Origin: Myxococcota bacterium
GTDB taxonomy: Bacteria > Myxococcota_A > UBA9160 > JAFDDA01
DNA: 64,000 nt
Direction of reading: 5' to 3'
NCBI GenBank assembly: GCA_965228475.1
Contig: OZ245817.1
Location: forward strand, 3,648,001-3,712,000
Part shown: positions 906 through 50,791 of the stretch, in pieces
Layout: each line of letters starts with the position of its first letter
Position numbering within the stretch: position 1 is the stretch's first letter
Notes under the pieces: generated by a model
What the model was told of the DNA's origin: nothing
Database searches by the model: none
What the model saw: the letters and a program-made list of their open reading frames with translations, nothing else
Program-made: the position numbers and the translations under genes

Positions 906-926
906 GATCTGACGTTATATCAGATC
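906..926. promoter_or_regulatory. Palindromic operator copy 1 (GATCTGAC-GTTAT-ATCAGATC), upstream of the TetR gene
   Basis: Inverted repeat about 36 nt upstream of the tetR ATG; contains a TATAAC -10-like hexamer on the minus strand; one mismatch to TCTGAC-N5-GTCAGA. Confidence 0.8.
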
Positions 927-966
927 GGCCTCTCGCTGGAGTACTTGTGGCGTGCTGGCGGCCCTT

Positions 967-3900
967 CTATGGCGCTTCGCGCAAGTCGGAGAGACGACTC
1001 GTGATCAAGTCTCGATCCCTCCCGGCAAGCCCATACACCTGGAAAGCCAAGTCATCGATCCGGCGATCGAGCGACTGCCGCTCGCGTTCGTTGACCGCCC
1101 GCTCCTCCGGTGTCCGGCCACGGCTCGCGGACAGCGCCACCCTTCGCCTTACAAGTCCATCAATAGCATCGTGCTGCACCGGCACAGCGCTGCGGCGGGG
1201 TATCGAGAGCCTGCCTACCTGGTTCCAGAAGTATTCGTACTGCCCTGCGCTCGTCAGCTTTCCGATAAATCGATAGCGGAACGTCAAGGCGAGGGAGTTC
1301 AAGAGTCCAAGGATGTAGTACATGGACTCCTCCTGTTGATTCTCGTAGAGGACGGTGGTGTCGGTGAGGCCGAGGAATTCGGAACGAGCATCGAAGGCGA
1401 ATCGATTCCGGCTGGCGCGGTAGGGGCACCAAATCCGCGCTCTGTCCACGTACTCTTGGTGGAGCGGCCACGTAAAACGCCACCACTCGCAGTCGCCTCG
1501 CTTGAAGGCAGCCCGGTTCCGAAGCCCTTCCTCGTGGCTCCGGAGGTGCGCCTGTAGCCCCTGCGGCAAGTCGGCGAATCGTGCCACCTGCTCAAGAAAC
1601 AAGACGGGCTGCCCCGAGTCGGAGATGTGGAAGCGGTCTATGTTCGAGTTTCGCACCCGGGTGTAGTAGTAAGTCGCGGGAACCTGCCAATCCTTTAGCT
1701 GATCCATCGACGGACCGGCGAAGGCGGCGTTGAGACCTGTCTCCATCCCCTTCCCAACGTGAAGGATCTCGGACACCGGCTCACCCTGCCCGTCGATTCT
1801 TCGCAGGACGCGCTCGACCTCCTCGGATGCGAAGATCCACGGCTCACGCGAGAATGCCTCTTGGGGAACAAACAACCGTTCAAAGAGTGCGGTCTCTTCG
1901 CGCTGAGCGGCCAGATCTCCTGGCACGAAATCGCGCGCAACGAGATCGAACACCTGGGCCGGTCCCTCGCCTGATGGGCGATTCTTCTCCAAGGTCACGA
2001 TCGCAGTTGCTATCCCGACTCCCGGGAACACGTAAAAGTCCCGGAAGTCCAGAATGTGATGAACGCGCGCGTTGCCCCCAATGAAGAAACGCAACTTGTC
2101 CGCCTTGTACGCTTCGCGGAACGCACGAGAAACAATGAAACCGATACGTCCGCGCGAGATACGAACTGCAGTGGCCAAGAAGTAGAAGAGCACGTCTGTC
2201 TTGTCGCGATGAATCTCTGGATACACGGCTTTGAGGTAGTCAAGGCGCGGGTCCTTCCTGCCCCAGGTGTCATCGACACTGTAGTAGGGCGGATTGCCGA
2301 CTACCGCGTCGAAACCGGGCTGAGGGCCCTCGAAAACCTCAGGGAACTCGCGCTCCCAATCGAAGCAGTTGATCCTCAGCCGCTCTTCGTCGTCGGCAAG
2401 TGGGAGGCCCAACTGGGCGTAGTAGTCGGTGCCGACCAATGAGTTCCCACACCTGATATTTCTGTCGAGATCAGGGAGGGCCCGCTCCTGAAAAAGGCTC
2501 AGGTTCTGGCCGATCGTCTCCTCGGACTCACCCTCAAGGACTTTCAGGAGGAGCGCAAGCTTGGTGACTTCGACTGCCTGGGGATCGATATCGACTCCGA
2601 AGATATTCGAGATAAGAATCCGCTTCCGCTCGCTCGAAGTGAGTCGCCAATCACCGTGACGAGCGCGATAGAGCCGAGGCGGTCTGCCGCGAGCGTGACG
2701 TTCCGGGTTGTCATTCACATAGCGGTTGAGATACCAGTCGAGCAGGTACTGATATGCAACGATTAGGAAGGATCCGCTACCGCAAGATGGATCGACGATT
2801 CGAAGAGTTCGTGCTGTCTCCGGCGTTTGCCCCTCGAGCAGCGAGCCTAGGGTCTCCTGAACGATGTAGCGGACGACAAACGAGGGAGTGTAGTAGACTC
2901 CGCCGGCCTTCTTGACCTCTGGCTTCTGCTCGACTCTCACACTGCGATCCGGGGCGAGCGTCAGAGTGTTTCCCAGAAACCGTTCGTACGTTTGACCCAA
3001 GATGTCTGCCGGTAGTACCGAGAACTCGTACGGGCTGTCGGGGTAGTAGAGGGGTTTCAGGATCCTGCGCAGAGTCGTATCACCGACCTTCAGGAGTGGC
3101 GTCAGACCATCCGGCGCAGTTGCCCGCCCCTTCTCAACGCGAAAATGGAACAGACCCGAGTTATACCGATCATCCGAACGCCTAAATACTCTGAGCAGCT
3201 CGCTATAGATTCCATCCCGCTCGCAAATTTTCTGAAGCTGTCCGTACGGTTCTACTCCACGGTCTTCGCAGATCCGTAGGAATACGATGCGGTCTATCGT
3301 CACCTGGACTGCGTAGTTGAGCTCTCGAAGCGACAGGTCGGCGTTCTCTCGAGCGAAGTCCTGAGCGAAATCAATGCGCCATCTCTCGATCTCATCAAGG
3401 AAGGCCTCATCAACCGCCTCTGTTCCGCGCCTACCCTTCGTCGAGTCGACATACCGATCGAACGAACCAGAAGCAAGGGCCTCCCGAGAGAAGACTGACT
3501 CGATCTCGGCCCAGCGGTCCTTGTACTCTTCGAACTTTAGATACTTGATTCGCGCAGTCGCAGCGCCGTGTTCTTTCTTGGGAGGGATGCGACAGTCGTA
3601 GATCGCGAACTCCTCGAAGTCGGTAAGTACCGAGAGCGGAAGACCTGCTGACCACCCATAGCGCCGCAGCTGGTAGGAGGGCCCAGACGCAGTCTCGAGA
3701 GCAGTTGCGGGCTTCTTCGCCTCGACGAAGAATCGACGCTCACCACCGACACGAAAGCAGTAGTCGGGAGCTTTGACACTCCCTTCGATTCGTATCGAGT
3801 CCTCATGAATTACTTCTTTGTAGGGCTCCGGATATCCTTTCTCGTTTGCGACATCCCAACCGAGCGCGCCAAAGAGCGGATCGAGAAACTCTTTGCGCAG

Positions 3901-7475: not shown

Positions 7476-8945
7476 TCAGCTTGCGCGGAAGGTGCCGTCG
7501 GCGGAGACGCGCACGGTCCGGCCGCACCACTCCTCCGCCATGCAGGCGGCCAGCAGGGACGGGTCTTCGCTCGCTGCGACGGTCCGGTCGCCGTTCTCGA
7601 GGTCGCAGACGGCGATGGCGCGCTTCGGGGCGCCGGCCTCGTGGAGCAGGGTGTAGCCCCCGACCCGAGCCGCCCCCTCGAACCGGCCGTCGAGACGCCG
7701 GACCCGCGTCGCGGCGGCGACCTCTTCGCTCACGTCGTCGAAGGCGAAGGGCGCCGAGGGCGCTTCGGTCGAGAGGGCCAGGAACCCCTGCTTGGTGAAC
7801 ATCCCGCTCACCGCGGTCACGAGGCCCGTCGCATCGGCCGATTCGCGCAGGAGGCCCGCCATGCGCGCCGTCGCCTGCAGCACGTAGTTGTTCACGGGAC
7901 CGCCCGCGAAGGGCATCCCGCCCGTGACGGTGAAGGGCCCCTCGCTGCGGCCGAGGGCGCGCGCGAGAAAGCGAACGGCGACCGGGAAGCAGCTGTAGAG
8001 ATCGACGTGGGTGAAGTCGGCCGGCGCGACGCCCGACGCTTCGCACACGCGCTCGGCCGCGATGCGCGCGGCCTCGCTCTCGAAGAGCACGTCACGCTCG
8101 CAGACGGCGGCCATGTGGTTCGACTCGCTCGCGGCGAGCGGATGGATCGCGCGGTCCGGCGCGATGCCGAGCGCCTGCGCCCGCTCCGCCGAGCAGAACA
8201 GGAGCGCCGCCGCCTGGTCCACGTTCCAGCCCGAGGTGTGGAGCTTCGCGTAGGGGAAGGCGAGCATCGGATTCGCGGTGCCGGGCGTCGCGATCGTTTC
8301 GGCGGTGAAGGGGGCGCGGCGCCAGGCCTCGGGGTTGTCTTGGGCGACGCGGCTGAAACCTTCGTAGAGACGGCCGAGCCTCTCCGCGTGCTCGCCGATC
8401 CCGAGACCCTCCTTCGCGCGGAGCGCACTCTCGAGCAGGGCGTAGTAGCCGACCGGGAAACGCAGGCCGCGCTCCCACTCGATCTCCGCCCAGAGGGCGT
8501 CGTGCGGCCGCCACAGGTGGGTCGGCGCGACGTCGCGCTGCTGGGTCTCCTCGAGCTCGACGCCGGCGATCTCGGCCCGGAGGCTCCGGTACTTCGCCTC
8601 GCCCCCCACGACGAGGGCGACGTCGGCTTCCCCATCGCGAATCGCCCGGCACGCATCCGCAAGCAGGGTCGTCTGGAGGACGCCGAACTCGGCGAGGATC
8701 GTCTCCGCCCCGGCGGAGCCCAAACGCTCCGCGAGCAGCCGCCCCGGGTCCGGGTAGCTCCAGAAGCCACGCGGCACGGCGATGCGGTCCAGACGGCCGA
8801 GCAGCGCCGGCGCCCCCGCGTCCTCGGCCGCGGCGCGCACGGCTTCTTCCATCAGCGCAACGGGCTCGAGGGCGTCGCGTGCGTCTTCGCAGCGGCGGGT
8901 GGCCGTTCCGGCGCCGACCAGGAGCGGGGTGCGCGAGTCGATCAG
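7476..8945 (-). CDS. Thiolase-like (acetyl-CoA acetyltransferase family) protein
   Basis: N-terminus (L)IDSRTPLLVGAG; VDLYSCFPVAV, TVTGGMPFAGGPVNNY. Start placed at CTG 8945, overlapping the upstream TGA. Confidence 0.85.
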   Translation of the reverse strand: MIDSRTPLLVGAGTATRRCEDARDALEPVALMEEAVRAAAEDAGAPALLGRLDRIAVPRGFWSYPDPGRLLAERLGSAGAETILAEFGVLQTTLLADACRAIRDGEADVALVVGGEAKYRSLRAEIAGVELEETQQRDVAPTHLWRPHDALWAEIEWERGLRFPVGYYALLESALRAKEGLGIGEHAERLGRLYEGFSRVAQDNPEAWRRAPFTAETIATPGTANPMLAFPYAKLHTSGWNVDQAAALLFCSAERAQALGIAPDRAIHPLAASESNHMAAVCERDVLFESEAARIAAERVCEASGVAPADFTHVDLYSCFPVAVRFLARALGRSEGPFTVTGGMPFAGGPVNNYVLQATARMAGLLRESADATGLVTAVSGMFTKQGFLALSTEAPSAPFAFDDVSEEVAAATRVRRLDGRFEGAARVGGYTLLHEAGAPKRAIAVCDLENGDRTVAASEDPSLLAACMAEEWCGRTVRVSADGTFRAS

Positions 8946-9757
8946 CCCGCCTCCCCGTAGAAGAGGCGCGCGGCGTTGCCGTGGAGGTAACCGTCGAGCA
9001 CTTCGGCGGGCAGGTCGAGCTTCCTCGCTTCCTCGATGCAGCGATCCATCTGGATCGCGGGATGATCGGAAGCGAAGATCACCTTGCCCTTCCCCCGCGT
9101 CCGCATGAAGTGGATCAGCTCGGGCGGCAGATACTTCGGGAGATAGGCCGACGTCATCAGGTGGAGGCCCGGATATTTGAGCATCAGGCGGATCGCGACG
9201 GCCCACCAAGGGTCGGCGCCGTGAGCCATCACCAGCTTCAACTCCGGGAAGTGCAGACAGACCTTGTCGAGATGCATCGGATGCTGGCACTCACCGGGGG
9301 CGGGGGGCCCGGGGATCCCCGTATTGATCGTGATCGGCAGATCGAGCTCGATGCACTTCGCGTACACCGGGTAGTAGACGGCGTCGTTCGGGGCGATGTC
9401 GAGATAGAAGGGCGTGATCCGGGCCAGCACGACGGGATGGTTCGCATGGAACGCCTCGAGCGCGCGGAGCGCCTTCATCCCGCGCCGCGGGTCGAGCTGA
9501 GCCCCGAGCGAAAAGCGCTCCGGGTGCTTCTCCGCGAACTGCAGCACGTGCGGCGAGGGCTTGCCCGGGTCCGTCGTCAGGATGGCGCGCTCGACGCCGC
9601 AGGCGTCCATGCGCTCGAGCGTCTCTTCGACCTCGTAGTTCCGGAAGAAGTCCTCGCCCTGCTTGAAGTACTGGCTCGCGACGGTGACCAGGTAGTCCGG
9701 GCGACCGAGCTCGGCCATGTTCACGTTCACCCAGGCGTCGATGACGCGTCCGCTCAT
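8942..9757 (-). CDS. Amidohydrolase family protein (amidohydro_2 type)
   Basis: MSGRVIDAW..., YYPVYAKCIELDLPI, FPELKLVMAHGADPW, KVIFASDHP, GNAARL; ATGA overlap with the Rieske gene. Confidence 0.88.
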   Translation of the reverse strand: MSGRVIDAWVNVNMAELGRPDYLVTVASQYFKQGEDFFRNYEVEETLERMDACGVERAILTTDPGKPSPHVLQFAEKHPERFSLGAQLDPRRGMKALRALEAFHANHPVVLARITPFYLDIAPNDAVYYPVYAKCIELDLPITINTGIPGPPAPGECQHPMHLDKVCLHFPELKLVMAHGADPWWAVAIRLMLKYPGLHLMTSAYLPKYLPPELIHFMRTRGKGKVIFASDHPAIQMDRCIEEARKLDLPAEVLDGYLHGNAARLFYGEAG

Positions 9758-10728
9758 CGGAGGCCGCCTCGCGAGGCCGCCTCGGCGGAGTGTTCGCTGA
9801 AGAACTGGGCGTACCACTTGCGATACGTGCGGAAGTGCTCGTCGCCTTCGGCGAGCACCGGGCGCTCCCAGAACGTCTTGTTCTCCCAGATCGGGATGTC
9901 CTGGGCCATCTGACGTTCGAGGTCCTTGATGATCGCGGCGCCGACGCCGCGCGCCGCGTCCGCCCCGCCCTGCTTCGAAACCGTGTAGGCGAAACTCACG
10001 TCCGTCGTCTCTTCGTCGAGGGGCGTCGCCGTGTTGATCATGAGCGTATCCACGATACCCGAGAGCCGCACGGCCTGGAGCGCCGGCCCGTAGTCCGTGG
10101 TGTAGATGCCGCCGGTGACCTCGCCCTTCGGCGTCCCGAGCTTCATGCGATTCTTCACGGAGAAGACGGGGCCCTCGGCGTGGACTTCGCTCTCCGGGAT
10201 GGTGTGTGCGCCGTGGACGTACTTGAAGTGGACGCCATCGACGCAGTTCTCGTTCATGTCGAGCCAGCGCGCCCGCACCGTCCAGTGGCGGACCTCGAGG
10301 GGCGTCCAATCGGGCGAGCCGACCTCCTCGAACTCCGGCACCTCGTAGGCGGGCGGCCGTCCCTCGGCGTCGTGGTGAAGGAAGACGATCCCGTTGCGCT
10401 CGCAGGTCCGCCACGCCCGGAGCCGGGCCTTCGGCGGGATCTTCTTCGCGTAGGGGACGTGTTCGCAGCGCCCGTCCGGCCCGAACTCCCAGGCGTGGAA
10501 CGGACAGCGCACCCGGTTTCCGCCGACGACCCGTCCGCCGTGGCCGAGGTGCGCCCCGAGGTGCGGACAGAAGGCATCGAGCACGTGCGCCGCGCCCTCG
10601 GCGTCGCGGTAGGCGATGAGTTCCCGGCCGAGCCGGCGGAACGCCGCGACCTCACCGGCCTCGATCTCCTCGGCGTAGGCGAGGCGGAACCAGCCGTTGG
10701 CGTAGGCGGGGAACGGGTAGCGGCTCAT
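9754..10728 (-). CDS. Rieske 2Fe-2S non-heme iron oxygenase (KshA/sterol desaturase-like)
   Basis: Rieske CPHLGAHL...CPFHAW; mononuclear Fe motif ENCVDGVHFKYVH; C-terminal DIPIWENK. Confidence 0.92.
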   Translation of the reverse strand: MSRYPFPAYANGWFRLAYAEEIEAGEVAAFRRLGRELIAYRDAEGAAHVLDAFCPHLGAHLGHGGRVVGGNRVRCPFHAWEFGPDGRCEHVPYAKKIPPKARLRAWRTCERNGIVFLHHDAEGRPPAYEVPEFEEVGSPDWTPLEVRHWTVRARWLDMNENCVDGVHFKYVHGAHTIPESEVHAEGPVFSVKNRMKLGTPKGEVTGGIYTTDYGPALQAVRLSGIVDTLMINTATPLDEETTDVSFAYTVSKQGGADAARGVGAAIIKDLERQMAQDIPIWENKTFWERPVLAEGDEHFRTYRKWYAQFFSEHSAEAASRGGLR

Positions 10729-10751: not shown

Positions 10752-10772
10752 AATCTGACGGACCGTCAGATT
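10752..10772. promoter_or_regulatory. Palindromic operator copy 2 (AATCTGAC-GGACC-GTCAGATT)
   Basis: Perfect 8-bp arms, about 24 nt upstream of the Rieske ATG. Confidence 0.85.
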
Positions 10773-15525: not shown

Positions 15526-16698
15526 CTAGCGGCGCGGCAGCCCGAGGGCGCGCTGGGCGACGATGTTGCGCTGAATCTCCGAGGTCCCGGCGTAGATCGT
15601 CGCGGCCCGGGACCAGAGGAGCTCGTGCTGCCAGAAGCCGTCGTCGACGGCGGCCGGGTCGCCCCCGGGAACGAGCGCTGCCTCCCCCAGGATCTCGAGC
15701 GCCGTGTCCTTGATCCGTTGATCGAGCTCGCTCCAGAAGATCTTCAGGACGGACCCTTCGGGACCGGGCTCCTCCCCGTGCTCGAGCTTCGTCGCGTTCC
15801 GGTAGCCGGTCATGCGCAGGATCATGAGCTCGCTCGCGAACTCTCCGAGCTTCTGGCGGATCACCGGGTCGTCGGCCGCCGTTCCCGAGCCGCGCGGGGT
15901 GCGTCTGGCCAGCTCGACGAGCTTTCGGAACTGCATCTGCAGCCGTTCGTGGGCGGAGGCCGTTCCGCGCTCGACGTTCAGGGTCGTCATGACCACGTCC
16001 CACCCGCGATGGAGCTCGCCGACCAGGTTCTCGCGCGGCACGCGGACGCCGTCGAAGAAGACCTCGTTGAACCAGGCCTCGCCGGTCATCTCGACGAGGG
16101 GCCGGATCGTGATCCCGGGCGAGCGCATGTCGACGAGCAGGAAGGAGAGGCCCCGGTGGCGCTGGCTCTCGGGGTCCGTGCGGACGACGAGAATGCACCA
16201 CTCCGAGTGCTGGGCGAAGCTCGTCCAGATCTTCTGCCCCGTGACGACGATCTCGTCGCCTTCGACGTCCCCGCGCGTGCGCAGGGCGGCGAGGTCCGAG
16301 CCGGCGCCCGGCTCCGAGAAGCCCTGGCACCAGACCTCTTCGCCGCGCAGGATCGGCCCGAGGTAGCGCTCCTTCTGCGCGTCGGTCCCATGATGGATCA
16401 GGGTCGGGCCGACCAGCGACGTGCCGACCGAGAGCTGGATCAGGTTCGGGGCTTCTGCGCGGGCGTACTCTTCTCCCCAGATGAGCGCCTCGATCACGCT
16501 GGCCCCGCGCCCGCCGAACTCGCGCGGCCAGGTCAACCCGGCGTAGCCGCCTTCGTGGAGGGTCGCCTGCCAGCGGCGCCCGAACGCCACGCGCTCCTCG
16601 GTGCGATCGGGGCCGGGCCCCTCGGGCACGTTGGCGCGGAGCCACGCGCGCACCTCCGTACGGAAGGCGGCCTGTTCGGGGGAGTCACGCAGATCCAT
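15526..16698 (-). CDS. Acyl-CoA dehydrogenase
   Basis: WCQGFSEPGAGSDLAALRT, GQKIWTS, FNEVFFD, TIYAGTSEIQRNIVA. Confidence 0.95.
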   Translation of the reverse strand: MDLRDSPEQAAFRTEVRAWLRANVPEGPGPDRTEERVAFGRRWQATLHEGGYAGLTWPREFGGRGASVIEALIWGEEYARAEAPNLIQLSVGTSLVGPTLIHHGTDAQKERYLGPILRGEEVWCQGFSEPGAGSDLAALRTRGDVEGDEIVVTGQKIWTSFAQHSEWCILVVRTDPESQRHRGLSFLLVDMRSPGITIRPLVEMTGEAWFNEVFFDGVRVPRENLVGELHRGWDVVMTTLNVERGTASAHERLQMQFRKLVELARRTPRGSGTAADDPVIRQKLGEFASELMILRMTGYRNATKLEHGEEPGPEGSVLKIFWSELDQRIKDTALEILGEAALVPGGDPAAVDDGFWQHELLWSRAATIYAGTSEIQRNIVAQRALGLPRR

Positions 16699-17953: not shown

Positions 17954-18426
17954 CCTGCGGCGGGGGCGTAGAGCACGAGGCCCTTGTAGAGCAGCGACGG
18001 CTTCTCGTTCCCGACGACGTGCACCGCCGTTTCGGTCGTGACGAGCGTCCCCTTCGGCTTCGCCACGGCCGCAGCGAGGCGCGCGCGGGCATGCACCTGG
18101 CTCCCGCAGGGGACCGGCGCCAGGAAGCGGAAGCCGTCCGATCCGTAGTTGACCGCGCTCCCGTACCCGACGATGGAAACCGTTTGCCCGGGGCGCAGGG
18201 CCGGAACCAGCGAGAGCGTGAAGAAGCCGTGGGCGATGGGGCCGCCGAAGGGGCTCTCCTTCTTCGCGCGCTCGACGTCGACGTGGATCCACTGATGATC
18301 GCCGGTGAGTTCGGCGAACCGGTCGACCTTTTCCTGGGTCACGTCGGTCGGCGGGCCCCACTCGCCGAACTCCTCGGAAACGGCGGCGGACAGCGCGGTG
18401 ACGTCGTCGAAGCGGATCTCTTGCAT
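17950..18426 (-). CDS. MaoC family dehydratase
   Basis: FAELTGDHQWIHVDVERA...GGPIAHGFFTLSL. Confidence 0.92.
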   Translation of the reverse strand: MQEIRFDDVTALSAAVSEEFGEWGPPTDVTQEKVDRFAELTGDHQWIHVDVERAKKESPFGGPIAHGFFTLSLVPALRPGQTVSIVGYGSAVNYGSDGFRFLAPVPCGSQVHARARLAAAVAKPKGTLVTTETAVHVVGNEKPSLLYKGLVLYAPAAG

Positions 18427-18440
18427 GGTTCCTCCTTGAG

Positions 18441-27378: not shown

Positions 27379-27404
27379 TGGCTCCCCCGCACGGAGCCCT
27401 ACTT

Positions 27405-31430: not shown

Positions 31431-31453
31431 GAATCTGACGGTGTGTCAGATTC
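31431..31453. promoter_or_regulatory. Palindromic operator copy 4 (GAATCTGAC-GGTGT-GTCAGATTC)
   Basis: Perfect 9-bp arms; overlaps a TAGAAT -10-like hexamer on the minus strand. Confidence 0.87.
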
Positions 31454-36437: not shown

Positions 36438-38512
36438 CCCCGCTCGAGGAGGTAGTCGCCGCCTTGGTCGAGCCGGGCACGCCAGCCCGGGTAGACGACG
36501 ATCGTGGTGAAGGTCTCCTCGAGAATCACCGGTCCTTCGACGACCTCTCCCGGGGCGAGACTCGCTCCGTCCCGGATCGGCGTCTCGGCAAATCCGTTCC
36601 CGAGATGGGCGCGGCGCGTCCGCCCTTCGCTCACGGTCCGGGCGCCGTCGCCCCGCCCGGCCGCAGCGAAGTCCGGCGGCGGCGTATCGACGAAGGCCGT
36701 GAGCCGTACCCCCGTGATCTCCGGCACCTCCGCCGGCCGATCGTGACCGTACTCGGAACGGTGTCGGGCGTGGAACGCATCGGCGGCCCGCTCTCCGAGC
36801 CCGGGCGTCACGAAGCCGAGGTCGCACCCGCCGACGCTTTCCCCGACGCGCACCGCGAGGGACCAGTTCTGCCCCGGGTAGCGAAGGTTGAGCGCGTACT
36901 CGCGTCGGAGCTCGCCGGGCGGAAACCCCGCTTCTTCGAAGCGCCGCGCGGCGCGCACATCGAGGTCCGCGAAGAGCTCCGTCAGCCGGTCGGCCGGCGC
37001 GACCGCCGAGGAGACGAGCAACGATCGTTCTTCGTCGATGGTCGGCTTCGCTGCGAGCGCGCCGAGGGCGGAGAATGCGGGCGAGGCCTTGGGCACCAGG
37101 ACCCGCTCGATCCCGAGCTCCTCGGCCTGGATTCCCGCGAAGATCGGGCCGTTCCCGCCGTAGGCGAGCATGGCGAGGCCGCGCGGGTCCGTTCCCTTCT
37201 CGGCGGTCCAACGCCGCACGGCCTGGGTCATGTTGGCGTTCACGATGCGGAAGCAGTCGAAGGCCGCCTCCTCGACGCTGCACCCGAGCGGGCCGGCGAC
37301 GTGCTCCTCGAAGGCTTCCTCGACGCCCTTGCGCTGCAGGGCGAAACGGCCCCCGGCGAAGGCCGACGTCTCGGAGAGCAGGCCGAGCAGCAGGATCGCG
37401 TCGGTCACCGTCGGCTGCGTTCCTCCGCGGCCGTAGCAGACCGGCCCGGGGTCGGCGCCCGCGCTCCCGGGCCCGACGCGCAGCGTTCCCTCGTGGAGCT
37501 GGCAGAGCGACCCCCCGCCGGCGCCGAGGGTCTCGACGGCGACCATCGGCAGCCCGAGCACGTGCCGGTGATGCCAGTTCCAGCCGGGCTCGGCGGGCGC
37601 CGCGCCTCCGCGAACGACCGAGACGTCGTAGCTCGTGCCGCCCATGTCGACGCACAGGAGGTCCGGGGCGGACTTCGCCGAACCGAAGTGCGCCGCGCCG
37701 ATCACGCCTCCGGCCGGGCCCGAGGCCAGTACGCGCACCGGGCTCCCGCGGAGGTACGCGCGCGACATCACGCCACCGCTCGACTGCATGACGAGCAGGT
37801 CTCGCTCGTAGCCGGCCTCCCGGAGCCGCTCGATCAGACGATCGAGGTAGGCCGTGACGCGAGGGCCGACGTAGGCGTTCACCGCGGTCGTGCTGGTGCG
37901 CTCGTACTCCGGCGCCTTGGGCAGGACCTCGTGGGAGAGCGAGATCGGCACGCCGGGCAGCGCCTCCTCGACCCAGCGGGCGAGGAGCTGCTCGTGCTCG
38001 GGGTTCACGAAAGCGAAGAGCAGGCTGATCGCGACCGACTCGACGCCCTGACGCGCGAGCCGCTCGATCGCCGCACGCGCCGACCACTCGTCGAGGGGCA
38101 CGTGGACGCGGCCGTCGTGGAGAATGCGCTCCCGCACCGTGAGGCGGCGGCGCCGCGGAACGATCGGATCGGGCGGCGGCAGCCGGACGTCCCAGATGTC
38201 CTCCTTGTAGCCGCGGCGGAGTTCGAGCTCGTCCCGAAACCCCTCCGTCGTCAGGAGTCCGGTCTTCGCACCGTCCCGTTCGATCAAGGTGTTGTCGGCG
38301 ACGGTGGTGCCGTGGACGATCGCGTCGAGGCCGCCGAGGAACTCGGCCAGCCCGAGGCCCTGGCGCTGCGCGAGCCGTTCGAGGCCCGTCAGCACCGCCT
38401 CCGAGCGGTCGGCCGGCGTCGAGAGCACCTTCTCGAGCACGAAGCCCTCGGACGTCTCGAGCGCGAAGTCCGTGAACGTTCCCCCGATGTCGACCCCGAC
38501 GCGCCGGCTCAC
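36434..38512 (-). CDS. Hydantoinase A / 5-oxoprolinase family protein (ATP-binding subunit)
   Basis: GVDIGGTFTD, HGTTVADN, SGPAGG, DMGGTSYD, GAGGGS, SAGADPGPVCYG. Confidence 0.93.
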   Translation of the reverse strand: MSRRVGVDIGGTFTDFALETSEGFVLEKVLSTPADRSEAVLTGLERLAQRQGLGLAEFLGGLDAIVHGTTVADNTLIERDGAKTGLLTTEGFRDELELRRGYKEDIWDVRLPPPDPIVPRRRRLTVRERILHDGRVHVPLDEWSARAAIERLARQGVESVAISLLFAFVNPEHEQLLARWVEEALPGVPISLSHEVLPKAPEYERTSTTAVNAYVGPRVTAYLDRLIERLREAGYERDLLVMQSSGGVMSRAYLRGSPVRVLASGPAGGVIGAAHFGSAKSAPDLLCVDMGGTSYDVSVVRGGAAPAEPGWNWHHRHVLGLPMVAVETLGAGGGSLCQLHEGTLRVGPGSAGADPGPVCYGRGGTQPTVTDAILLLGLLSETSAFAGGRFALQRKGVEEAFEEHVAGPLGCSVEEAAFDCFRIVNANMTQAVRRWTAEKGTDPRGLAMLAYGGNGPIFAGIQAEELGIERVLVPKASPAFSALGALAAKPTIDEERSLLVSSAVAPADRLTELFADLDVRAARRFEEAGFPPGELRREYALNLRYPGQNWSLAVRVGESVGGCDLGFVTPGLGERAADAFHARHRSEYGHDRPAEVPEITGVRLTAFVDTPPPDFAAAGRGDGARTVSEGRTRRAHLGNGFAETPIRDGASLAPGEVVEGPVILEETFTTIVVYPGWRARLDQGGDYLLERG

Positions 38513-40329
38513 GCGGCCGGCCCCCGGGCGCTCGCGAGTGCCTGGCGGCGGCGGGACGTCGCGGCAGCGTCGACGGCGAGGTCGCCGCCCTCGACGGAAC
38601 CGGTGAGCACGACGCCGTAGCGTTCGGCGGCGGCCGCGACGCTCACGTACTCGTCGAGCACGTCCTCGCGAACCGCATCCGGGTCGCGCTCGAGGGGATC
38701 CCCGAACCCCGCACCGCCCCCGTACTGGTAGGCGAGCACCGCGCCCGCAGGCAGCTGGGCCGCAGCCGAGTTCTCGATCGCGTACTCGTCCTCGGTGCCG
38801 ACGAGGAAGCGGTTCTCGTAGGGTGCGGCGTCTTCGCCCCCGCACAGACCGCGCAGCGGGTGGCGCATCGAGACCATCCAGGTCACGGCGGTGACCGGCT
38901 CGAGGACCTGCTTCACGTTGCGGCTGCCGGGCTGCCCGCGCCATTGGCCGGCGCCGCCGGTGTCCGGCGTCATCTCGCGGGAGAGGTTCAGGACCGGAAA
39001 GCGGCTCTCCGCCTCTTCCGCCGTCGCCAGGATCAGGTTGCCGAGGCCGCTGCACATCGCGCCCCAGCCATCGATGCCCTGCGTGGCCGAGGCGTCCGAC
39101 GCGCGCACGTCGACGCCCTGGTCCATCCACATCTGCCCGGCGGCATCGAACCCCACCACCGCGTTCGGCATGCCGAGCTTGTAGACCTGGGGCGAAGCGC
39201 GCTCGGGCAGCACCGGCGAGAGGGCGACGCAGATCGCCTCCCCGACCTCGACCGCCGGATGGAAGGCCCCGAGCGCCGCCGGCTTGCCGGGCGGCGGCTG
39301 CAGGATCGACCCTTCGGGCACGATCATCTCGACCGCGTCGAAGAGGCCCTCGTTCTTCGGCAGGGTCGGGTCGACCATGGAAGCGAGCTGGGCCATCGCG
39401 TAGCCGCGCGTGTTCGCGAAGGTGTTCCAGACGCAGACGAGCTCGGGCCGGTCGTCGCTGCCGGTCATGTCCACGGTGAGCTGGTCGCCCGCGACGCGGC
39501 AAGCGACCTCGACCCGCACGTCGCGGTGGCCGACGGTGTCGTGATCGATGAAGACCCGCGCCCGGTACTCGCCGTCGGGCCAGTCGGCGACCTGTGCGCG
39601 GAAGCGCCGCTCGGTCTCGGCGATGTTCCAGTTGATCGCGGCGCGCACGACGTCGGCGCCGTAGCGCCCGACGAGTTCCCCGAGCTTGCCCGCCCCGAGC
39701 TCCACCGCCGAGATCATCGCCGCGATGTCCCCGGCGAAGGAGGGCATGCGGTTGTTGCGGACGAGCATCTCGAGCACGTCCTCGCGCCGCTCGCCGCCCC
39801 GCACGAGCTGGAGGTACGGGATGATCATCCCCTCGGCGTGGAGCTCCATGGCATCGACCGAGAAACCGCCCGGGTCCTTGCCGCCGGTATCGCCCTGGTG
39901 GGCCTGGAGCGCCTGGATCGCGACGATCTCGCCCTCCCCGTCGAAGACCGGCGCGTAGACGTTGTAGTCCGGCAGGTGGCCGCCGCCGGCCTCCGGGTCG
40001 TTGCCGACGAAGACGTCGCCGGGGCCCCAGGCGTCGCGCTCGCGCCGTTCGAGCCCGTAGCGAACCGAGAGCGGCGAGATGAAGAGGAGCTGCGGGATGC
40101 CGACGGAGATGCCGGCCAGGCGGCCGTTGCCGTCGAGGATGCTCGCGTTGCGTTCGTTGCTCTGGTTGATGATGGCCGACGAGGCACAGCGGCCGAGGTG
40201 CGTCGCCACCTCGAAGCAGATGGTCTCGAAGGCGCCGCGGATGATCCCGGCCGTCACCGCGTCGAGCTCCGCGGAGGTCGGGAGCGGCGGGCGCGGCGCC
40301 ACCAGCCGGCGGTTGGTCTCGTAGGACAC
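38509..40329 (-). CDS. Hydantoinase B / oxoprolinase family protein
   Basis: PGDVFVGNDP..GGGHLPD, AHQGDTGG, TGGAGQWRG, GGGAGFGDPLERDP. Confidence 0.93.
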   Translation of the reverse strand: MSYETNRRLVAPRPPLPTSAELDAVTAGIIRGAFETICFEVATHLGRCASSAIINQSNERNASILDGNGRLAGISVGIPQLLFISPLSVRYGLERRERDAWGPGDVFVGNDPEAGGGHLPDYNVYAPVFDGEGEIVAIQALQAHQGDTGGKDPGGFSVDAMELHAEGMIIPYLQLVRGGERREDVLEMLVRNNRMPSFAGDIAAMISAVELGAGKLGELVGRYGADVVRAAINWNIAETERRFRAQVADWPDGEYRARVFIDHDTVGHRDVRVEVACRVAGDQLTVDMTGSDDRPELVCVWNTFANTRGYAMAQLASMVDPTLPKNEGLFDAVEMIVPEGSILQPPPGKPAALGAFHPAVEVGEAICVALSPVLPERASPQVYKLGMPNAVVGFDAAGQMWMDQGVDVRASDASATQGIDGWGAMCSGLGNLILATAEEAESRFPVLNLSREMTPDTGGAGQWRGQPGSRNVKQVLEPVTAVTWMVSMRHPLRGLCGGEDAAPYENRFLVGTEDEYAIENSAAAQLPAGAVLAYQYGGGAGFGDPLERDPDAVREDVLDEYVSVAAAAERYGVVLTGSVEGGDLAVDAAATSRRRQALASARGPAA

Positions 40330-40376: not shown

Positions 40377-40405
40377 AGTATCTGACGGAGCGTCAGAAAC
40401 GTCAA
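40377..40405 (-). promoter_or_regulatory. Sigma70-like promoter TTGACG-N17-GATACT carrying operator copy 5 (TCTGAC-GGAGC-GTCAGA, 40381-40397)
   Basis: Minus strand reads TTGACG TTTCTGACGCTCCGTCA GATACT; the palindrome fills the spacer and overlaps the -10 hexamer. Confidence 0.82.
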
Positions 40406-40436
40406 CCGAAGGCGGGGGATGGCGTATGCTGCCGCG

Positions 40437-40913
40437 ATGCCCGTCGAGCACGTCTCGCACCTCGGCCTGTGCGTCGCGGATCTCGATCGCGCGGCGCGCT
40501 TCTACCGCGAAGGGCTCGGCTTCCGCGAGCGCTCGCGGATCGAGGTCGCCGGGGAAACGTCGAGCCGGCTGCTCGGGCTGGAAGGGGCGGCGCTCCGTGG
40601 CCTCTATCTCGAACGGGACGGGCTTCGCCTCGAGCTCCTCCAGTTCGACGCCCCGGGGCCGCGCGCGCTCGAGACCCCCCGCCCCATGAACGGCCTCGGG
40701 CTCACGCACCTGTCCCTGCGCGTCTCGGACCTCGACACCCTGACCCCGGCCCTCGTCGCCGCGGGGGGCCGGGTGCTCGAGGAGAGCCGCATCGAAGCCG
40801 GCCCGGTCAAGGCCCTCTTCCTGCTCGATCCCGACGGCACGCGGCTCGAGCTGCTCGAGGCGCCCGGCGACCCGTCCCGGCTCCCGGGCGAACCGGTGCC
40901 GGCGTCCGAATAA
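40437..40913 (+). CDS. VOC/glyoxalase family protein
   Basis: HLGLCVADLDRAARFY, GLTHLSLRVSD, DPDGTRLELLE. Confidence 0.9.
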   Translation: MPVEHVSHLGLCVADLDRAARFYREGLGFRERSRIEVAGETSSRLLGLEGAALRGLYLERDGLRLELLQFDAPGPRALETPRPMNGLGLTHLSLRVSDLDTLTPALVAAGGRVLEESRIEAGPVKALFLLDPDGTRLELLEAPGDPSRLPGEPVPASE

Positions 40914-45594: not shown

Positions 45595-46716
45595 CTACTG
45601 GCGGCCGCCCAAACCGAGGCCCTGCCGCGCGACGACGGAGCGCATGATCTCGGTCGTCCCGCCGCCGAGGGTCTCCCAGAGACTCTGCAGCCAGAGGAGC
45701 TGCGCGCGCGAGTCGGCGCACAGTGACTCCGGGCCGCCCCAGTCGAACGCCGCCCGGGCGATCTGCTGCGCCGCCAGGGTGTGGACGATCTTGTTGGCCG
45801 CAGCCTCGACCGAGCCCGTCCGCCCTTTCTGCATCGCATCGAGCACGCGCAGCGCGTGGACCTCGACCTCGAGGCTCGTGACGGCGAGCTCGGCCATCCG
45901 CTCGCGCACCACGGGCTCGCTCGCACGCCCGCTGCGCCGGAGCCAGGCGGCGACCTCCTCGAGGTCCCGGGCGACCCGTGCGGGCGGGAACTGGATGTGG
46001 CGCTCGTCCGCCAGGGCCTCCCCCATGATCTTCCACGCGCCGTTCTCCGGGCCGACGCGCCGCTCGGCGGGAATGCGCACGCCGTCGAGCCGGACCTCGT
46101 TCAGCTGGTCGCCGTCGAGGGTGGGCAGCGGGGCGACGGTCACCCCCGGCGCATCGAGTTCGACGATGAAGAGCGAGAGCCCGCGGCCGCGGCTCTCCGG
46201 GCTCCCCGTGCGCGCGAGCAGCCAGAGGAAGTCCATGTCCTGGGCGTAGGACTGCCAGCACTTCTCGCCCGTCACGACGTAGGCGTCGCCGTCGCGCTCG
46301 GCGCGGCAGCGCAGGCTCGCCAGATCGCTGCCCGCCTCGGGCTCGGAGTAGCCGAGGGAGAAGTGCGCGGCGCCGCGGCGGATCTCCGGCAGGAAGGCCT
46401 TCTTCTGCGCGTCGCTCCCGTAGCGAAGGAGCGTCTTGGCGACGATGCCGGGGCCGAGCGGGTTGCGCGCGGCGCGAGCGCGCGCAACCTCGTTCCACAG
46501 CAGGTACTCGCAGGCGAGGGACCGGTCGAGCCCGCCCCATTCTTCGGGCCAGCCGAGGGAGAGCCAGCCGCGCTCGCCCATCGCCCGGAAGAGCGCCCGG
46601 ACGCGCGGCCATTGGTGACCCTGCACGAAGTACGCGCCGAGATCCGACCAGTCGCGGAGGAACTCGCGCACCTCGTCGCGGAAGCGAAGCTCGTCCCGGG
46701 AGAAGGACGCCTTCAT
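45595..46716 (-). CDS. Acyl-CoA dehydrogenase
   Basis: LGYSEPEAGSDLASLR, GEKCWQS, TLGGGTTEIMR. Confidence 0.93.
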   Translation of the reverse strand: MKASFSRDELRFRDEVREFLRDWSDLGAYFVQGHQWPRVRALFRAMGERGWLSLGWPEEWGGLDRSLACEYLLWNEVARARAARNPLGPGIVAKTLLRYGSDAQKKAFLPEIRRGAAHFSLGYSEPEAGSDLASLRCRAERDGDAYVVTGEKCWQSYAQDMDFLWLLARTGSPESRGRGLSLFIVELDAPGVTVAPLPTLDGDQLNEVRLDGVRIPAERRVGPENGAWKIMGEALADERHIQFPPARVARDLEEVAAWLRRSGRASEPVVRERMAELAVTSLEVEVHALRVLDAMQKGRTGSVEAAANKIVHTLAAQQIARAAFDWGGPESLCADSRAQLLWLQSLWETLGGGTTEIMRSVVARQGLGLGGRQ

Positions 46717-46744
46717 CGGAGCGCGACGCCTCCGGCCGACACGC

Positions 46745-47596
46745 TCACTCGTCCCCGTCCTCGGCCTCGTCGATGCGGGCGTTCGGATCGGGATTCCAGC
46801 GCGGCGCGCGCTTCTCTGCGAAGGCGCGCGAGCCTTCGAGGAAGTCCGGGTGGGACCAGTGCGCCCGCAGGGAGTCCCAGGCGCGCTCGAGGGCCTCCTG
46901 ATAGCCGAACTCGACCGCACCCCAGACGGCCTCCTTCGAGCGAGCCATCGCCTGGGGCGAGTTGCCCTTCATCTGCTCGGCCATCTCTTCGGCCAGGGGC
47001 AGGAGATCGGCGGGAGCGTCGACCAGCTCGTCGACCAGTCCGAGCTGCCAGGCGCGGTCGGCCTCGAGCCGGTAGTGCCGTCCGAGCAGGGTCATGCGCA
47101 GGGCGGTCCCGAGCGGGAGCCGCTTGGCGAGGCCGACGTTCTCGAGCGCGCCCACCATACCGACGTTCACGTGCGCATCGACGAACGCCGCGTTCGCCGA
47201 GGCGAGCACGATGTCGGCGTCCACCACGAAGTGGAGTCCGCCTCCGACGCACAGCCCGTTCACCAGGCAGATCACGGGTTTCCAGACCCGGTTCTGCTGC
47301 GGCGACCAGAAGACCGCTTCGGCCAGGGGCCGGTCGGCGAAGACCTCGTCGGCCTCGTCGCCCTCCGCCTCGGCGACGTCGAAGCCGGTGCAGAAGTGCC
47401 GCTCCCCGGTGGACCCCAGGATCGCGACCCGAACCTCGGGGTCGTCGCGCACGTCGGCCCAGATCGCGCGGAACACCGGCTGCATCGGCGGCGTGAGCGA
47501 GTTCCCGCGCTCGGGGCGGCAGAGGCGGATGAAGGCCTTGCCGTCGCGCTTCTCGTATTCGACACCCGGCAGCGGTCCGTCGAGATCGATGCTCAT
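46745..47596 (-). CDS. Enoyl-CoA hydratase/isomerase family protein
   Basis: FCTGFDV, KPVICLVNGLCVGGG, EGSRAFAEKRAPRW. Confidence 0.92.
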   Translation of the reverse strand: MSIDLDGPLPGVEYEKRDGKAFIRLCRPERGNSLTPPMQPVFRAIWADVRDDPEVRVAILGSTGERHFCTGFDVAEAEGDEADEVFADRPLAEAVFWSPQQNRVWKPVICLVNGLCVGGGLHFVVDADIVLASANAAFVDAHVNVGMVGALENVGLAKRLPLGTALRMTLLGRHYRLEADRAWQLGLVDELVDAPADLLPLAEEMAEQMKGNSPQAMARSKEAVWGAVEFGYQEALERAWDSLRAHWSHPDFLEGSRAFAEKRAPRWNPDPNARIDEAEDGDE

Positions 47597-48576
47597 CCGG
47601 AGACTCCCTCGCCGTCGAGGAACGGCACGAATGCTTCGAGCAGGCGCGGTGTCGCACCGAGCTCGGCAGGCGGCAGCGAGGCCACCTCGCGGATGCGGCG
47701 CGAGATCGGGAAGGCCGGCCCCTCGCGCGTGATGCCGACCGCCCCGAAGACCTGGTGGCCGACGTGGACCGCGTCGAGCGCGGCGCGCGTAGCCGAGCGC
47801 CGCGCGGCCGTGGCCCAGGCCGGTGCCTCGGGATCGTCTTCGTCGCAGCGCCACGCCGCCGCGCGCGCGAGGGCCGCGGCGCCCTCGAGGGCCACCGCGG
47901 AATCCGCGAGCGGATGAGAGACCGCCTGGAACTCGCCGATGGCGCGGCCGAACTGACTCCGCAGGCGGGCGTGTTCGCACGCGGCGTCGAGGAGCCGTCG
48001 GCCGACCGCGGCGAGATACGCAGCGCGCGAGAGATCGGAGCGAAGGAGCGCGTGCGCCGCCGGACCGAGGCACGTCGTCCGCTCGAGCGCACCGCGGGCC
48101 GCCGGCTCACCGGCGAGGGTCCTCACCGCTTCGAGCTCGCCGGCCGGCTTCGCGAGCCAGACCTCACCGCTCTGGGCATCGACCTCGAGAAAGCGCTCCG
48201 CATCGAGGCCCCAGGGCAGCACGGGCGGTTCCCCCAGACAGACGACCACCCCGCCCGCGGCCACGTCGGCGCGGTCCGGCTCGGGGAGAACGTCGCAGGC
48301 GAAGAACGTCGCGAGCAACGGGCCGGGGAACGCTGCGAACCCGAGCGCTTCGAAGAGCGCGACGCGTTCGAGCGCCCCGCCCTGCCCCTCGGCACCCGCC
48401 ACCGCGAAGCCGCCGAGCTCGGCAAAGGCCCGCCATGCGTCGGCCGGGAAGGCGCCTTCGCGGCGAAGCAGCGCGTCGTCGCAGTGATCGCGGCAGAGCG
48501 CGGCGACGGCGTCGTGGAGCGCCTGCTGGCCCTCGTCGAAGCCGAGGTCGAGGCTTCGTTCGGTGGCAGCGCTCAC
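47593..48576 (-). CDS. Short acyl-CoA dehydrogenase (probable partner subunit)
   Basis: RSQFGRAIGEFQAVSHPLAD, HQVFGAVGITRE; ~327 aa. Confidence 0.88.
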   Translation of the reverse strand: MSAATERSLDLGFDEGQQALHDAVAALCRDHCDDALLRREGAFPADAWRAFAELGGFAVAGAEGQGGALERVALFEALGFAAFPGPLLATFFACDVLPEPDRADVAAGGVVVCLGEPPVLPWGLDAERFLEVDAQSGEVWLAKPAGELEAVRTLAGEPAARGALERTTCLGPAAHALLRSDLSRAAYLAAVGRRLLDAACEHARLRSQFGRAIGEFQAVSHPLADSAVALEGAAALARAAAWRCDEDDPEAPAWATAARRSATRAALDAVHVGHQVFGAVGITREGPAFPISRRIREVASLPPAELGATPRLLEAFVPFLDGEGVSG

Positions 48577-49532
48577 GCGGAGACGGGCCATCGGGCCCGG
48601 GCTGCGCTGCGCCGGTGGCCGGCCGCGCCGCCGAGCTCGAGCCGAAGCGCCTGGAGGCGCATGCTGAAGACGTGGAGGTCGTGCTCGCGCGTGAAACCCA
48701 TCGCACCGCAGAACTGGTGCGTCTCGTCGAAGACGGCCTTCGCCGTTTCGCTCGCGTAGGCGGCGGCGACCGCGGCGGCCTCCGCGGCCCGAGCGCCCGT
48801 CGCATCCGCGGCTTCGAGGGCCAGCCAGCGGGTCCCTTCGACGCGGACCGCCAGATGGGCGAGGCGATGCTGCAGGCCCTGGAAGGAACCGAGCGCACGC
48901 CCGAACTGCCGGCGCTGCTTCACGTGCTCGAGCGTCGCATCGAGTGCGCCCCGGGCGCTCCCCGCGACTTCGCACGCCAATGCGACCCGCCACCAGCGCA
49001 GCAGCGCCCCGCTCTCGCCCGCGAGCCCTTCGGACTCTGCGTGGATCTCCGATGAGACCATGCCGAAGGGATACCCGAAGCTCGAACGCACCGGCTCGAC
49101 GCTGCCCGGCCGGATCGTCGCGATCCGCATCGCCTCCTCGGAAGCGAACAGCACCTGCCGGGCATGGGCGGCGAAGCGGACCGGCCTGCCGGACCCGGCT
49201 TCGGGCCGCCATGCCAGGGCGACGGGCCCGGAGGCTTCGCGGCCGCCGAGCCCGCCTGCCTCCCGGACTCCGGGGATCACGAGTGTCGCGGCTCCGATCG
49301 CCGCGACCCCTGCCGCACGCGCCACCGCCTCCGTGAGCAGCGCGGCCTCGAGCGCACCGGACTCGGCGAAGAGTCCGAGAAAGCCGGCTTCCTCGAGCGC
49401 GGCCTCGAGCTCCGCGTCGTACCCGCCCTTGGCCGCGAGCTCGATGGCGCGCGCCGGCCCCGCATGGCGCTCGAGGAGCTGCCCGACGGCGTCGAGGACC
49501 GATCGCTGGTCTTCGTCGAGTTCGAAGTCCAC
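48573..49532 (-). CDS. Short acyl-CoA dehydrogenase (probable partner subunit)
   Basis: RRQFGRALGSFQGLQHRLA, HQFCGAMGFTREHDLH; 319 aa. Confidence 0.9.
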   Translation of the reverse strand: MDFELDEDQRSVLDAVGQLLERHAGPARAIELAAKGGYDAELEAALEEAGFLGLFAESGALEAALLTEAVARAAGVAAIGAATLVIPGVREAGGLGGREASGPVALAWRPEAGSGRPVRFAAHARQVLFASEEAMRIATIRPGSVEPVRSSFGYPFGMVSSEIHAESEGLAGESGALLRWWRVALACEVAGSARGALDATLEHVKQRRQFGRALGSFQGLQHRLAHLAVRVEGTRWLALEAADATGARAAEAAAVAAAYASETAKAVFDETHQFCGAMGFTREHDLHVFSMRLQALRLELGGAAGHRRSAARARWPVSA

Positions 49533-49535
49533 GCC

Positions 49536-50681
49536 CTACTCCCGCGGCAGCTCGAGAAGATGACGCGCGATCAGGTTCAGCTGGACCTCGGTCGCCCCCA
49601 CCGCCACCCCGGCCGTCATCGCCCAGCGAAAGCGCGTGTCCGCGTAGCTCCCGTGGGCGAGCGCCTCCTCCCCGAAGACCTCGATGGCCAGCTCCGCCAC
49701 CGCCTGCTCGGCCGCCGTTCCGGCCACGCGGGCGACGTTGCTGTCGGCACTCGGGGGTGCACCGTGCGCGCGCTGATCGATCACGCGATAGGTCAGCACG
49801 CGCGCAGCCTCGCAGGCGGCGCGCGCCTGGCCGAGCTTCTCCTGGATCCGCGGGTCTTCGAGCTGGCCGCGAGCCCGCGCGCGCTCGGCGAGGTCGTCGA
49901 GGATCAGGGCGGCCCGGTGATAGCGCGCGGCACCGACGCGCTCGAACTGCAGGGCATAGGAGACCACGTTCCAGCCTTCGTCCTCGGGCCCGAGCCGGCA
50001 GGAGACCGGGACCCGGACCGCATCGAAGAACACTTCGTGGAAGTAGCGGTCCCCCACGACCGAGGGGATCTCGCGCACCTCGATTCCCGGCAGGTCCATC
50101 GGGCAGAGCAGGACCGAGATACCCTTGTGGCGGCGCGAATCCGGATCCGTGCGGACCAGCAGGAAGCAGAAGCGCGCGTGGTTGGCGTAGGAGGTCCAGA
50201 TCTTCGAACCGTCGACCACGTAGTCGTCGCCGTCCCGGCGGGCGGCGGTCCGGAGCGCCGCGAGGTCGCTACCCGCTTCGGGCTCGGAGAAGCCCTGACA
50301 CCAGAGGACGTCGCCCGACGAGATCAGCGGCAGGTGTTCGGCCTTCTGCGCCTCGCTGCCGAACTTCATGATCGCGGGGCCGATCCAGTTGACGTTCATG
50401 TACTGGGGACCGCGCGGCTCCCCGTTGCCCCACATCTCCTCGCCCAGGATCGCGTGGCGCCACGGCGAAGCGTCGCTCCCGCCGAACTCCACGGGCCAGC
50501 TCTGGGTCAGCCAACCGCGGTTCGCGAGCTGCGCGCAGAAGCCCCGGGAGAACTCGGCCTGGTCGTCGCTGCCGGGGCCGCCCTTCGACAGCCGCTCCCA
50601 GTCCCCGGGCAGGGCCTCCGCGAGGAAGGCCTGGACCTCCCGGCGGTAGGATTCCTCTTCCGGCGACCAACCGAAGTGCAC
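49536..50681 (-). CDS. Acyl-CoA dehydrogenase
   Basis: WCQGFSEPEAGSDLAALRT, GSKIWTS, FHEVFFD, GATEVQLNLIA. Confidence 0.94.
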   Translation of the reverse strand: MHFGWSPEEESYRREVQAFLAEALPGDWERLSKGGPGSDDQAEFSRGFCAQLANRGWLTQSWPVEFGGSDASPWRHAILGEEMWGNGEPRGPQYMNVNWIGPAIMKFGSEAQKAEHLPLISSGDVLWCQGFSEPEAGSDLAALRTAARRDGDDYVVDGSKIWTSYANHARFCFLLVRTDPDSRRHKGISVLLCPMDLPGIEVREIPSVVGDRYFHEVFFDAVRVPVSCRLGPEDEGWNVVSYALQFERVGAARYHRAALILDDLAERARARGQLEDPRIQEKLGQARAACEAARVLTYRVIDQRAHGAPPSADSNVARVAGTAAEQAVAELAIEVFGEEALAHGSYADTRFRWAMTAGVAVGATEVQLNLIARHLLELPRE

Positions 50682-50774
50682 CGCCCTCCCTCCCTCGTTC
50701 CTCCGGATTTCGGATCGCGCGCGTGCCTGACCCGAAACAGGCTCCGGATGCCGCGGAAGACCATCCTACCATGA

Positions 50775-50791
50775 ACTGACGCACCGTCAGA
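50775..50791. promoter_or_regulatory. Palindromic operator copy 6 (ACTGAC-GCACC-GTCAGA)
   Basis: One mismatch; upstream of the ACAD operon, with a TAGGAT -10-like hexamer just downstream on the minus strand. Confidence 0.78.

Follow-up and report, generated by a model that had tools for sequence, protein, structure and literature searches.

This report concerns a palindromic DNA element and a regulator of the TetR family in a Myxococcota bacterium, the genome of which is a single contig (C1) of 5.0 Mb with 70% GC. The window, i.e., the whole stretch of 64,000 nucleotides that was analysed, is C1:3648001-3712000, and coordinates without a prefix are counted from its first letter. Six copies of the palindrome TCTGAC-N5-GTCAGA lie dispersed in the window. 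Comparison of sequences indicates that they are a real operator, very probably that of the neighbouring TetR protein encoded at 211-870.

The six copies are found exactly where a previous sequence-only reading of this DNA had placed them, four of them perfect and two with one mismatch, and allowing two mismatches adds no further copy in the window. That reading had considered repeated chance copies improbable, and this holds: 100 dinucleotide shuffles of the window gave a mean of 0.17 copies and a maximum of 2. In the whole genome there are seven perfect and four one-mismatch copies with a spacer of 5, whereas each of the other 11 spacers among 0-11 gave no perfect copy. By a codon-model gene finder, all six copies in the window are intergenic, each with its centre 34-102 bp before the leading gene of a unit on the minus strand, also as previously proposed. 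The gene calls come from our own codon model, so gene start positions are approximate.

A scoring matrix trained on 77 sites from other genomes was used to scan the genome and its relatives, as the sequence-only reading had suggested. The operator consensus is WTCTGAYRNNNYRTCAGAW. Nine intergenic sites rank at the top in this genome with scores of 25-35: the six in the window, C1:3613383, C1:4703932 and C1:4755719. At a score of at least 20, the real matrix finds 10 matches and eight column-shuffled matrices find 0-3. The tenth-ranked match, C1:3719415 (score 22.5), sits in a gene and was left out of the regulon, as was C1:607795, which lies before a gene and scores 17.8. Matrix matches are almost all outside called genes (167/170 and 55/55, training sites included); thus, a repeat that is equally frequent in coding regions is ruled out. 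C1:1557476 has perfect hexamers and a matrix score of 12.4, and was left out as uncertain. Its inner bases are atypical, and a further TCTGAC stands immediately before it. It precedes a family III CoA-transferase gene and may belong to another regulator.

The TetR protein matches PF00440 (38.9 bits) and PF19352 (TetR_C_38, 96.4 bits), and its gene is the only PF19352 gene in the genome. Its structural model (predicted local distance difference test score 91.7) is an all-helical TetR fold, with EthR as the nearest structure (template modelling score 0.73, 21% identity). Close homologues that bear names are from Myxococcota metagenome-assembled genomes (MAGs). Among 60 relatives searched, 32 have an orthologue (E below 1e-46). 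A perfect site occurs in 23/32 relatives with an orthologue and 4/28 without, and two or more sites occur in 15 relatives with an orthologue and none without; as these relatives are kin, the counts are not independent, and a Fisher test on them overstates the association. The motif was sought upstream of the orthologues: of 29 loci fetched, 15 have it before tetR or before the tetR operon with at most one mismatch, and 19 with at most two. The site accompanies tetR in varied contexts: tetR alone, or behind a short-chain dehydrogenase/reductase (SDR), Rieske or amidohydrolase gene. In a sample of the phylum, the TetR subfamily was found in 11/151 genomes, all of one class.

Around the 80 best TetR homologues (1.22 Mb), there are 64 site matches in 39 loci, as compared with 0, 1, 3 and 0 matches for spacers 3, 4, 6 and 7. 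The homologues include proteins of Acidimicrobiia, of a few Gammaproteobacteria and of one Streptomyces; some loci repeat genomes of the 60 relatives, and some MAG labels look doubtful. The shuffles, together with the spacer controls in the genome and around homologues, rule out a chance origin. Eleven protein families are common to actinobacterial and myxococcal site-bearing loci, and this TetR is the sole regulator among them. The protein and the site also appear to change together. In a clade of nine proteins in which His replaces the Gln that follows the recognition helix, T stands at operator position 2 in 11/14 half-sites, as against 5/130 elsewhere (from a quick tree of 104 of 108 rows, identical ones removed).

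The site could be a true operator whose reader is another regulator inherited with the pathway, with TetR only a target or neighbour. This is improbable, and several observations that count against our assignment would fit it. The genome holds 16 TetR-like matches and a LuxR-like regulator (4264-5427), and boxes of GntR regulators resemble the TCTGAC/GTCAGA half-sites. The exact site is missing from nine of the 32 relatives that have an orthologue, and among these nine are genomes of a single genus that are 92-98% complete (G030, G036, G048). Of the 28 without an orthologue, 4-5 carry sites, G043 having four. In Streptomyces, no good site was found upstream of tetR in 29/29 loci (best matrix score 7.2), where only a three-mismatch copy lies across the -10 and the start codon. 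The exact 17-mer is present in 52/61 Streptomyces genomes (reversed control, 1) and a single-copy PF19352 gene in 61/61, so the genus gives no negative control. The nine genomes without the exact 17-mer lack the close amidohydrolase orthologue, yet retain 7-33 copies of its 15-bp core. The covariation with His comes from one clade and counts as a single event, and another protein with His (L082) has the usual TCTGAC. The standing of TetR as sole shared regulator is biased, because the 80 loci were fetched by TetR itself. Against a different reader, the site-bearing loci of the two phyla have no other regulator family in common, the site stays with tetR when the surrounding genes change, and sites cluster around tetR in Streptomyces (in one genome, 13 of 44 15-bp cores are within 93 kb around tetR, a single-contig region). 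The LuxR-like protein was rejected as the reader, having no homologue in other site-bearing loci. It is a 387-aa protein, encoded on the plus strand, whose C-terminal part looks by eye like a LuxR helix-turn-helix; it has one paralogue in the genome and matches no Pfam family at 1e-3. In Halieaceae, single sites occur in 5/41 genomes and a TetR match in 2/41, with both together only in G189, rendering this comparison uninformative.

The position of the sites relative to promoter elements suggests how the regulator would act. Promoter elements are here consensus matches to sigma-70 only. The promoter TTGACG-N17-GATACT that had been noted at 40405-40377 is present (one, against a shuffle mean of 0.0). 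The sites at 31434, 10754 and 20899 start at, or immediately behind, a -10-like hexamer, and that at 50775 covers a -35-like hexamer. Of 70 one-way sites, 48 have a TANNNT hexamer within or next to the operator on the sense strand, and 12 have one on the antisense strand. The C-to-T variant TCTGATATA of the tetR site (908) recurs before many orthologues, and this change would create an extended -10-like element. Judged from the sequence, the geometry of the operator is that of a repressor site. An RNA hairpin or repeat (a leader stem or a repetitive extragenic palindrome-like element), acting in place of a protein-binding site, could fold into a stem of 7 bp closed by a loop of 3 bases, and the site before rpsU (described below) keeps its arms in two congeneric genomes while three central bases differ. 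This explanation is very improbable given that only spacer 5 occurs, asymmetric C-to-T changes, which disrupt the pairing, are tolerated, each promoter has one copy, and there are no shared flanks; moreover, many copies would not be transcribed, because they are inside or upstream of promoter elements.

The sequence-only reading held that this TetR reads the site as a repressor. Footprinting across relatives, co-occurrence and promoter overlap favour this; as to binding and induction, we infer them from the biology of TetR proteins. A TetR dimer would dock on one site per promoter, at or adjoining the sigma-70 -10 element, and block transcription of tetR itself and about eight catabolic units. 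An inducer, most likely a steroid-like or terpenoid intermediate in the form of its CoA thioester, would release TetR. The regulator-operator pair appears to be common to one Myxococcota class, Acidimicrobiia and Streptomyces, with differing target lists: genes for the sterol side chain, such as cyp125/fadA5, in Streptomyces, ring C/D genes (ipdAB, echA20, ipdF, fadA6-type) in two Acidimicrobiia, and a distinct set here (Table 1).

Table 1. The candidate regulator, its six putative operators and the units and genes next to them in the window
Feature	Position	Strand	Remarks
TetR-family repressor (TetR_N + TetR_C_38)	211..870	-	219 aa; likely operator reader
Operator 1	908..924		precedes tetR; holds TG-N-TATAAC extended -10-like element (922-914, minus strand)
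Operator 2	10754..10770		precedes Rieske unit; TATGGT -10-like hexamer (10780-10775) just upstream of site
Operator 3	20899..20915		between divergent CoA-transferase unit and SDR gene
Operator 4	31434..31450		first base is the end of TAGAAT -10-like hexamer (31455-31450)
Operator 5	40381..40397		fills TTGACG-N17-GATACT spacer (40405-40377); between divergent hydantoinase B and vicinal oxygen chelate (VOC) genes
Operator 6	50775..50791		covers CTGACG-N16-TAGGAT promoter-like pair (50790-50763, minus strand)
Rieske unit	7476..10728	-	KshA-type Rieske oxygenase 9754-10728, Amidohydro_2 8942-9757, thiolase 7476-8852
CoA-transferase unit	15526..20863	-	two family III CoA-transferase subunits, MaoC, major facilitator superfamily protein, acyl-CoA dehydrogenase
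SDR	20957..21736	+	divergent gene; conserved target, directly behind a site in 6/16 relatives fetched
Amidohydrolase unit	26560..31389	-	PtmU3-like Amidohydro_2, double hot-dog/MaoC, acyl-CoA ligase, small Amidohydro_2
Hydantoinase unit	36434..40329	-	hydantoinase/oxoprolinase B and A, ATP-dependent lactamase/carboxylase family
Glyoxalase/VOC gene	40419..40913	+	divergent; conserved target, directly behind a site in 5/16 relatives fetched
Dehydrogenase unit	45595..50681	-	four acyl-CoA dehydrogenases (two long, two short) and enoyl-CoA hydratase
Acyl-CoA ligase	52007..53632	+	orthologue directly divergent from site in 3 relatives; possible target

The gene families of the minus-strand units agree with those previously listed, and for the leading gene of each unit, 3-8 of the 16 relatives whose site-bearing stretches were fetched have an orthologue immediately after a site (7 for the Rieske gene). 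The nearest relative of the Rieske oxygenase is KshA, that of the first dehydrogenase of the 45595..50681 unit is steroid-type Tcur3483 and 4x28, and the nearest solved structure to the CoA-transferase subunits is benzylsuccinate CoA-transferase. The hydantoinase B/A pair is below the caprolactamase cut-offs, and no solved relative was found for the MaoC protein (29057-30253).

The sequence-only reading had the TetR repress about 20 genes that form one pathway. The regulon is larger than this, and its gene sets are reshuffled among relatives. The sites at 20899 and 40381 additionally lie 50 and 30 bp before the divergent plus-strand SDR and glyoxalase/VOC genes. There are two distant catabolic units outside the window: an SDR-thiolase-hydratase unit 35 kb before it and a distant amidohydrolase. 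Finally, a perfect operator at C1:4755719 lies 22 bp before rpsU of rpsU-dnaG-rpoD. The rpsU site is kept only in the congeneric genome (G001) and absent in the other 28 checked (2/30).

Three further features were noted in this region. A gene of 293 aa without a Pfam match (51058-51939, plus strand) intervenes between operator 6 and the acyl-CoA ligase. An Eco57I-type restriction-modification gene (967-4032, minus strand), in a stretch of low GC (56-61% as compared with about 70%), lies between tetR and an acyl-CoA dehydrogenase gene (5427-6584). It is likely an insertion: the GC is low, and in three relatives homologues of the dehydrogenase gene stand immediately next to the tetR-side operator in divergent orientation. 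Before the window, a minus-strand gene (C1:3633562-3637401) encodes a 1279-aa fusion of FGGY kinase, 2-hydroxyacid dehydrogenase, SCP2 and class II aldolase, and adjoins P450 and TetR genes.

One of the closest known systems is KstR (Rv3574) of Mycobacterium and Rhodococcus (PMC1995591), also a TetR repressor with a palindromic operator over the -10, autoregulation and dispersed acyl-CoA/steroid genes. The two differ in their DNA: the KstR box is TnnAACnnGTTnnA (PMC1995591), whereas the operator described here is TCTGAYRNNNYRTCAGA. The KstR box has 32 matches in this genome, none of them inside the window. The C-terminal family here is TetR_C_38, and the targets include dinuclear-oxygenase and hydantoinase genes; of the sterol side-chain and ring A/B functions that KstR controls, the targets here offer only a KshA-type Rieske oxygenase and steroid-type dehydrogenases as candidates. 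No KstR entry was among 35 sequence matches or the listed fold matches and no NCBIfam match was found at 1e-8, with no direct alignment to KstR having been made. The regulon of KstR2 (Rv3557c) comprises genes for rings C/D (PMC5380842), and in two Acidimicrobiia genomes the operator precedes such genes: echA20-ipdA-ipdB-ipdC-, fadE30-ipdF- and fadA6-type genes. In contrast, the KstR2 box AnCAAGnnCTTGnT, a consensus taken from the sequence-only reading, has no copies in this genome and at most one in three other genomes, below the reversed control. Thus, the operator is distinct from both boxes, as had been proposed. A cluster of ipdA-ipdB-ipdC-echA20-acyl-CoA dehydrogenases-fadA6 and ipdF-fadE30/fadD3-type genes is present at C1:3507689-3538879, with several other TetR genes nearby; it has no KstR2 box and no strong copy of the present operator. 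The regulon would work like those of KstR and KstR2 yet fails the tests for their boxes, and the mechanism itself is textbook.

The Rv3545c/Rv3546 (cyp125/fadA5) region is a KstR site in Mycobacterium tuberculosis (PMC1995591), and the same intergenic region carries the present operator in Streptomyces. Among 41 genomes searched, 32 have cyp125, and 30 of these loci were fetched. The 15-bp core precedes cyp125 in all 30 (26 above the matrix threshold), whereas KstR boxes were found in 0/30 and core matches in downstream controls in 0/30. Thus, the operator at Streptomyces cyp125 would take the role that KstR has in mycobacteria. The genome of Streptomyces sp. NPDC021080 holds 30 copies of a 16-base form of the site, of which 12 share a contig with tetR (hand count; 29 fetched). 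The P450 among the genes behind these copies has CYP125 as its nearest match (E 8e-158), and other such genes reach the NCBIfam cut-offs for a FadD3 family ligase, steroid 3-ketoacyl-CoA thiolase, 3-oxosteroid 1-dehydrogenase, an Rv3520c-type F420 enzyme and lipid-transfer thiolases.

A name can be proposed for the Streptomyces regulator. The S. avermitilis protein BAC71530.1 is 35% identical to the window TetR over 202 residues (E 2e-47) and shares the SPATFYQYF helix. In Streptomyces, tetR (locus L115) adjoins kbpA and afsK, with afsR near. As afsK is SCO4423 and SAV3816 (PMC3878966, PMC5640586, PMC3742746), the TetR would by gene order be SCO4421/SAV3818, in keeping with the same Pfam family, TetR_C_38, and full-length similarity. 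SCO4421 is expressed in spores; strains that lack it show no phenotype, and what it does is described as unclear (PMC3878966). When overexpressed, SAV3818 is reported to raise avermectin, by a mechanism called unknown (PMC5640586). Neither an operator nor a regulon is given in the accessible text of these two articles or of PMC3742746. The openly readable literature yielded no published description of this operator, although subscription journals, supplements and RegPrecise-type databases may hold one, and published Nocardioides motifs either differ from it or are not given in the main text. At one Streptomyces locus (L209:7227, G188), the operator lies between an amidohydrolase gene and divergent afsR, 29 bp from the former and about 200-290 bp from the latter.

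The most widely shared target is an amidohydrolase (C1:4703983-4705293), found as such in 24 genomes or loci of three phyla; its nearest relatives are DitZ, a diterpenoid hydroxylase (E 1.9e-110), and PtmU3. The amidohydrolase-related (ARO) dinuclear oxygenases have D-x-H and D-x-P-H-x-D/E motifs (PMC13154177). Like DitZ and PtmU3 (PMC13154177, PMC10811679), this protein has D-x-H and D-x-P-H-x-D, together with the preceding Glu of DitZ; unlike them, the three Amidohydro_2 proteins in the window fail the C-terminal motif. That encoded at 30250-31389 has D-x-H and reads D-Y-P-H-H-G at the C-terminal motif, and the two short ones (8942-9757 and 26560-27378) have neither motif. The latter, of 272 aa, presumably resembles mycobacterial Rv3510c. 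The D-x-P-H-H-G variant is conserved in 7/7 members of the 30250-31389 family, and another target family has D-Y-P-H-S-G; from sequence, such proteins are possibly altered or non-catalytic oxygenase subunits.

What the regulon degrades is a separate question, for which our best guess is that the substrate or inducer is a steroid-like or terpenoid CoA ester. A conceivable but in our view unlikely alternative is that the substrates of the window units are resin-acid-type diterpenoids or other cyclic isoprenoids that are not steroids; the DitZ-like dinuclear oxygenase would then catalyse the key step, and Actinomycetota would have gained the steroid genes later. The closeness of the most widely shared target to DitZ/PtmU3, together with its possession of both ARO motifs, would suit such a substrate, as would the lack of a KstD above cut-off and of an HsaD match in this genome. 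Against it, the window dehydrogenases and Rieske oxygenase are nearest to steroid enzymes, and cyp125 (30/30) and genes for FadA5-type thiolase, KstD, the FadD3 family, and EchA20-, IpdF- and FadA6-type proteins carry the site in Actinomycetota.

These observations would also allow a joint reading in four parts that we hold tentatively, at slightly less than even likelihood. First, the TetR_C_38 protein may be an undescribed, non-orthologous stand-in for KstR/KstR2. Second, the regulator and its operator may have moved as a pair among Actinomycetota, Myxococcota and a few Gammaproteobacteria, controlling sterol/terpenoid CoA catabolism around DitZ-type oxygenases. Third, the antibiotic boost by SCO4421/SAV3818 may come from shutting catabolic genes that consume acyl-CoA. 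Fourth, in this genus TetR may also have captured the rpsU-dnaG-rpoD promoter. Several findings count against a steroid substrate in this bacterium. A KstD above cut-off and an HsaD match are both lacking, and the ipdAB/fadD3 cluster of this genome (3.507-3.539 Mb) is without a strong site (best score 9.6); a single pathway is therefore not established. The window targets share no more than 46% identity with those of Streptomyces and Acidimicrobiia. In Streptomyces, the site precedes kstD in only 6 of 11 cases, with a KstR-type box present as well in two of the six.

The analysis provides a candidate operator and a target list for SCO4421/SAV3818, a near-universal regulator of Streptomyces, and suggests that sterol-catabolic genes in Streptomyces and Acidimicrobiia are controlled without a KstR box. 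It would also give a physiological context to the unstudied DitZ-like oxygenases. For the uncultured class of Myxococcota to which the present bacterium belongs, it points to a likely role as a degrader of steroid-like or terpenoid lipids.

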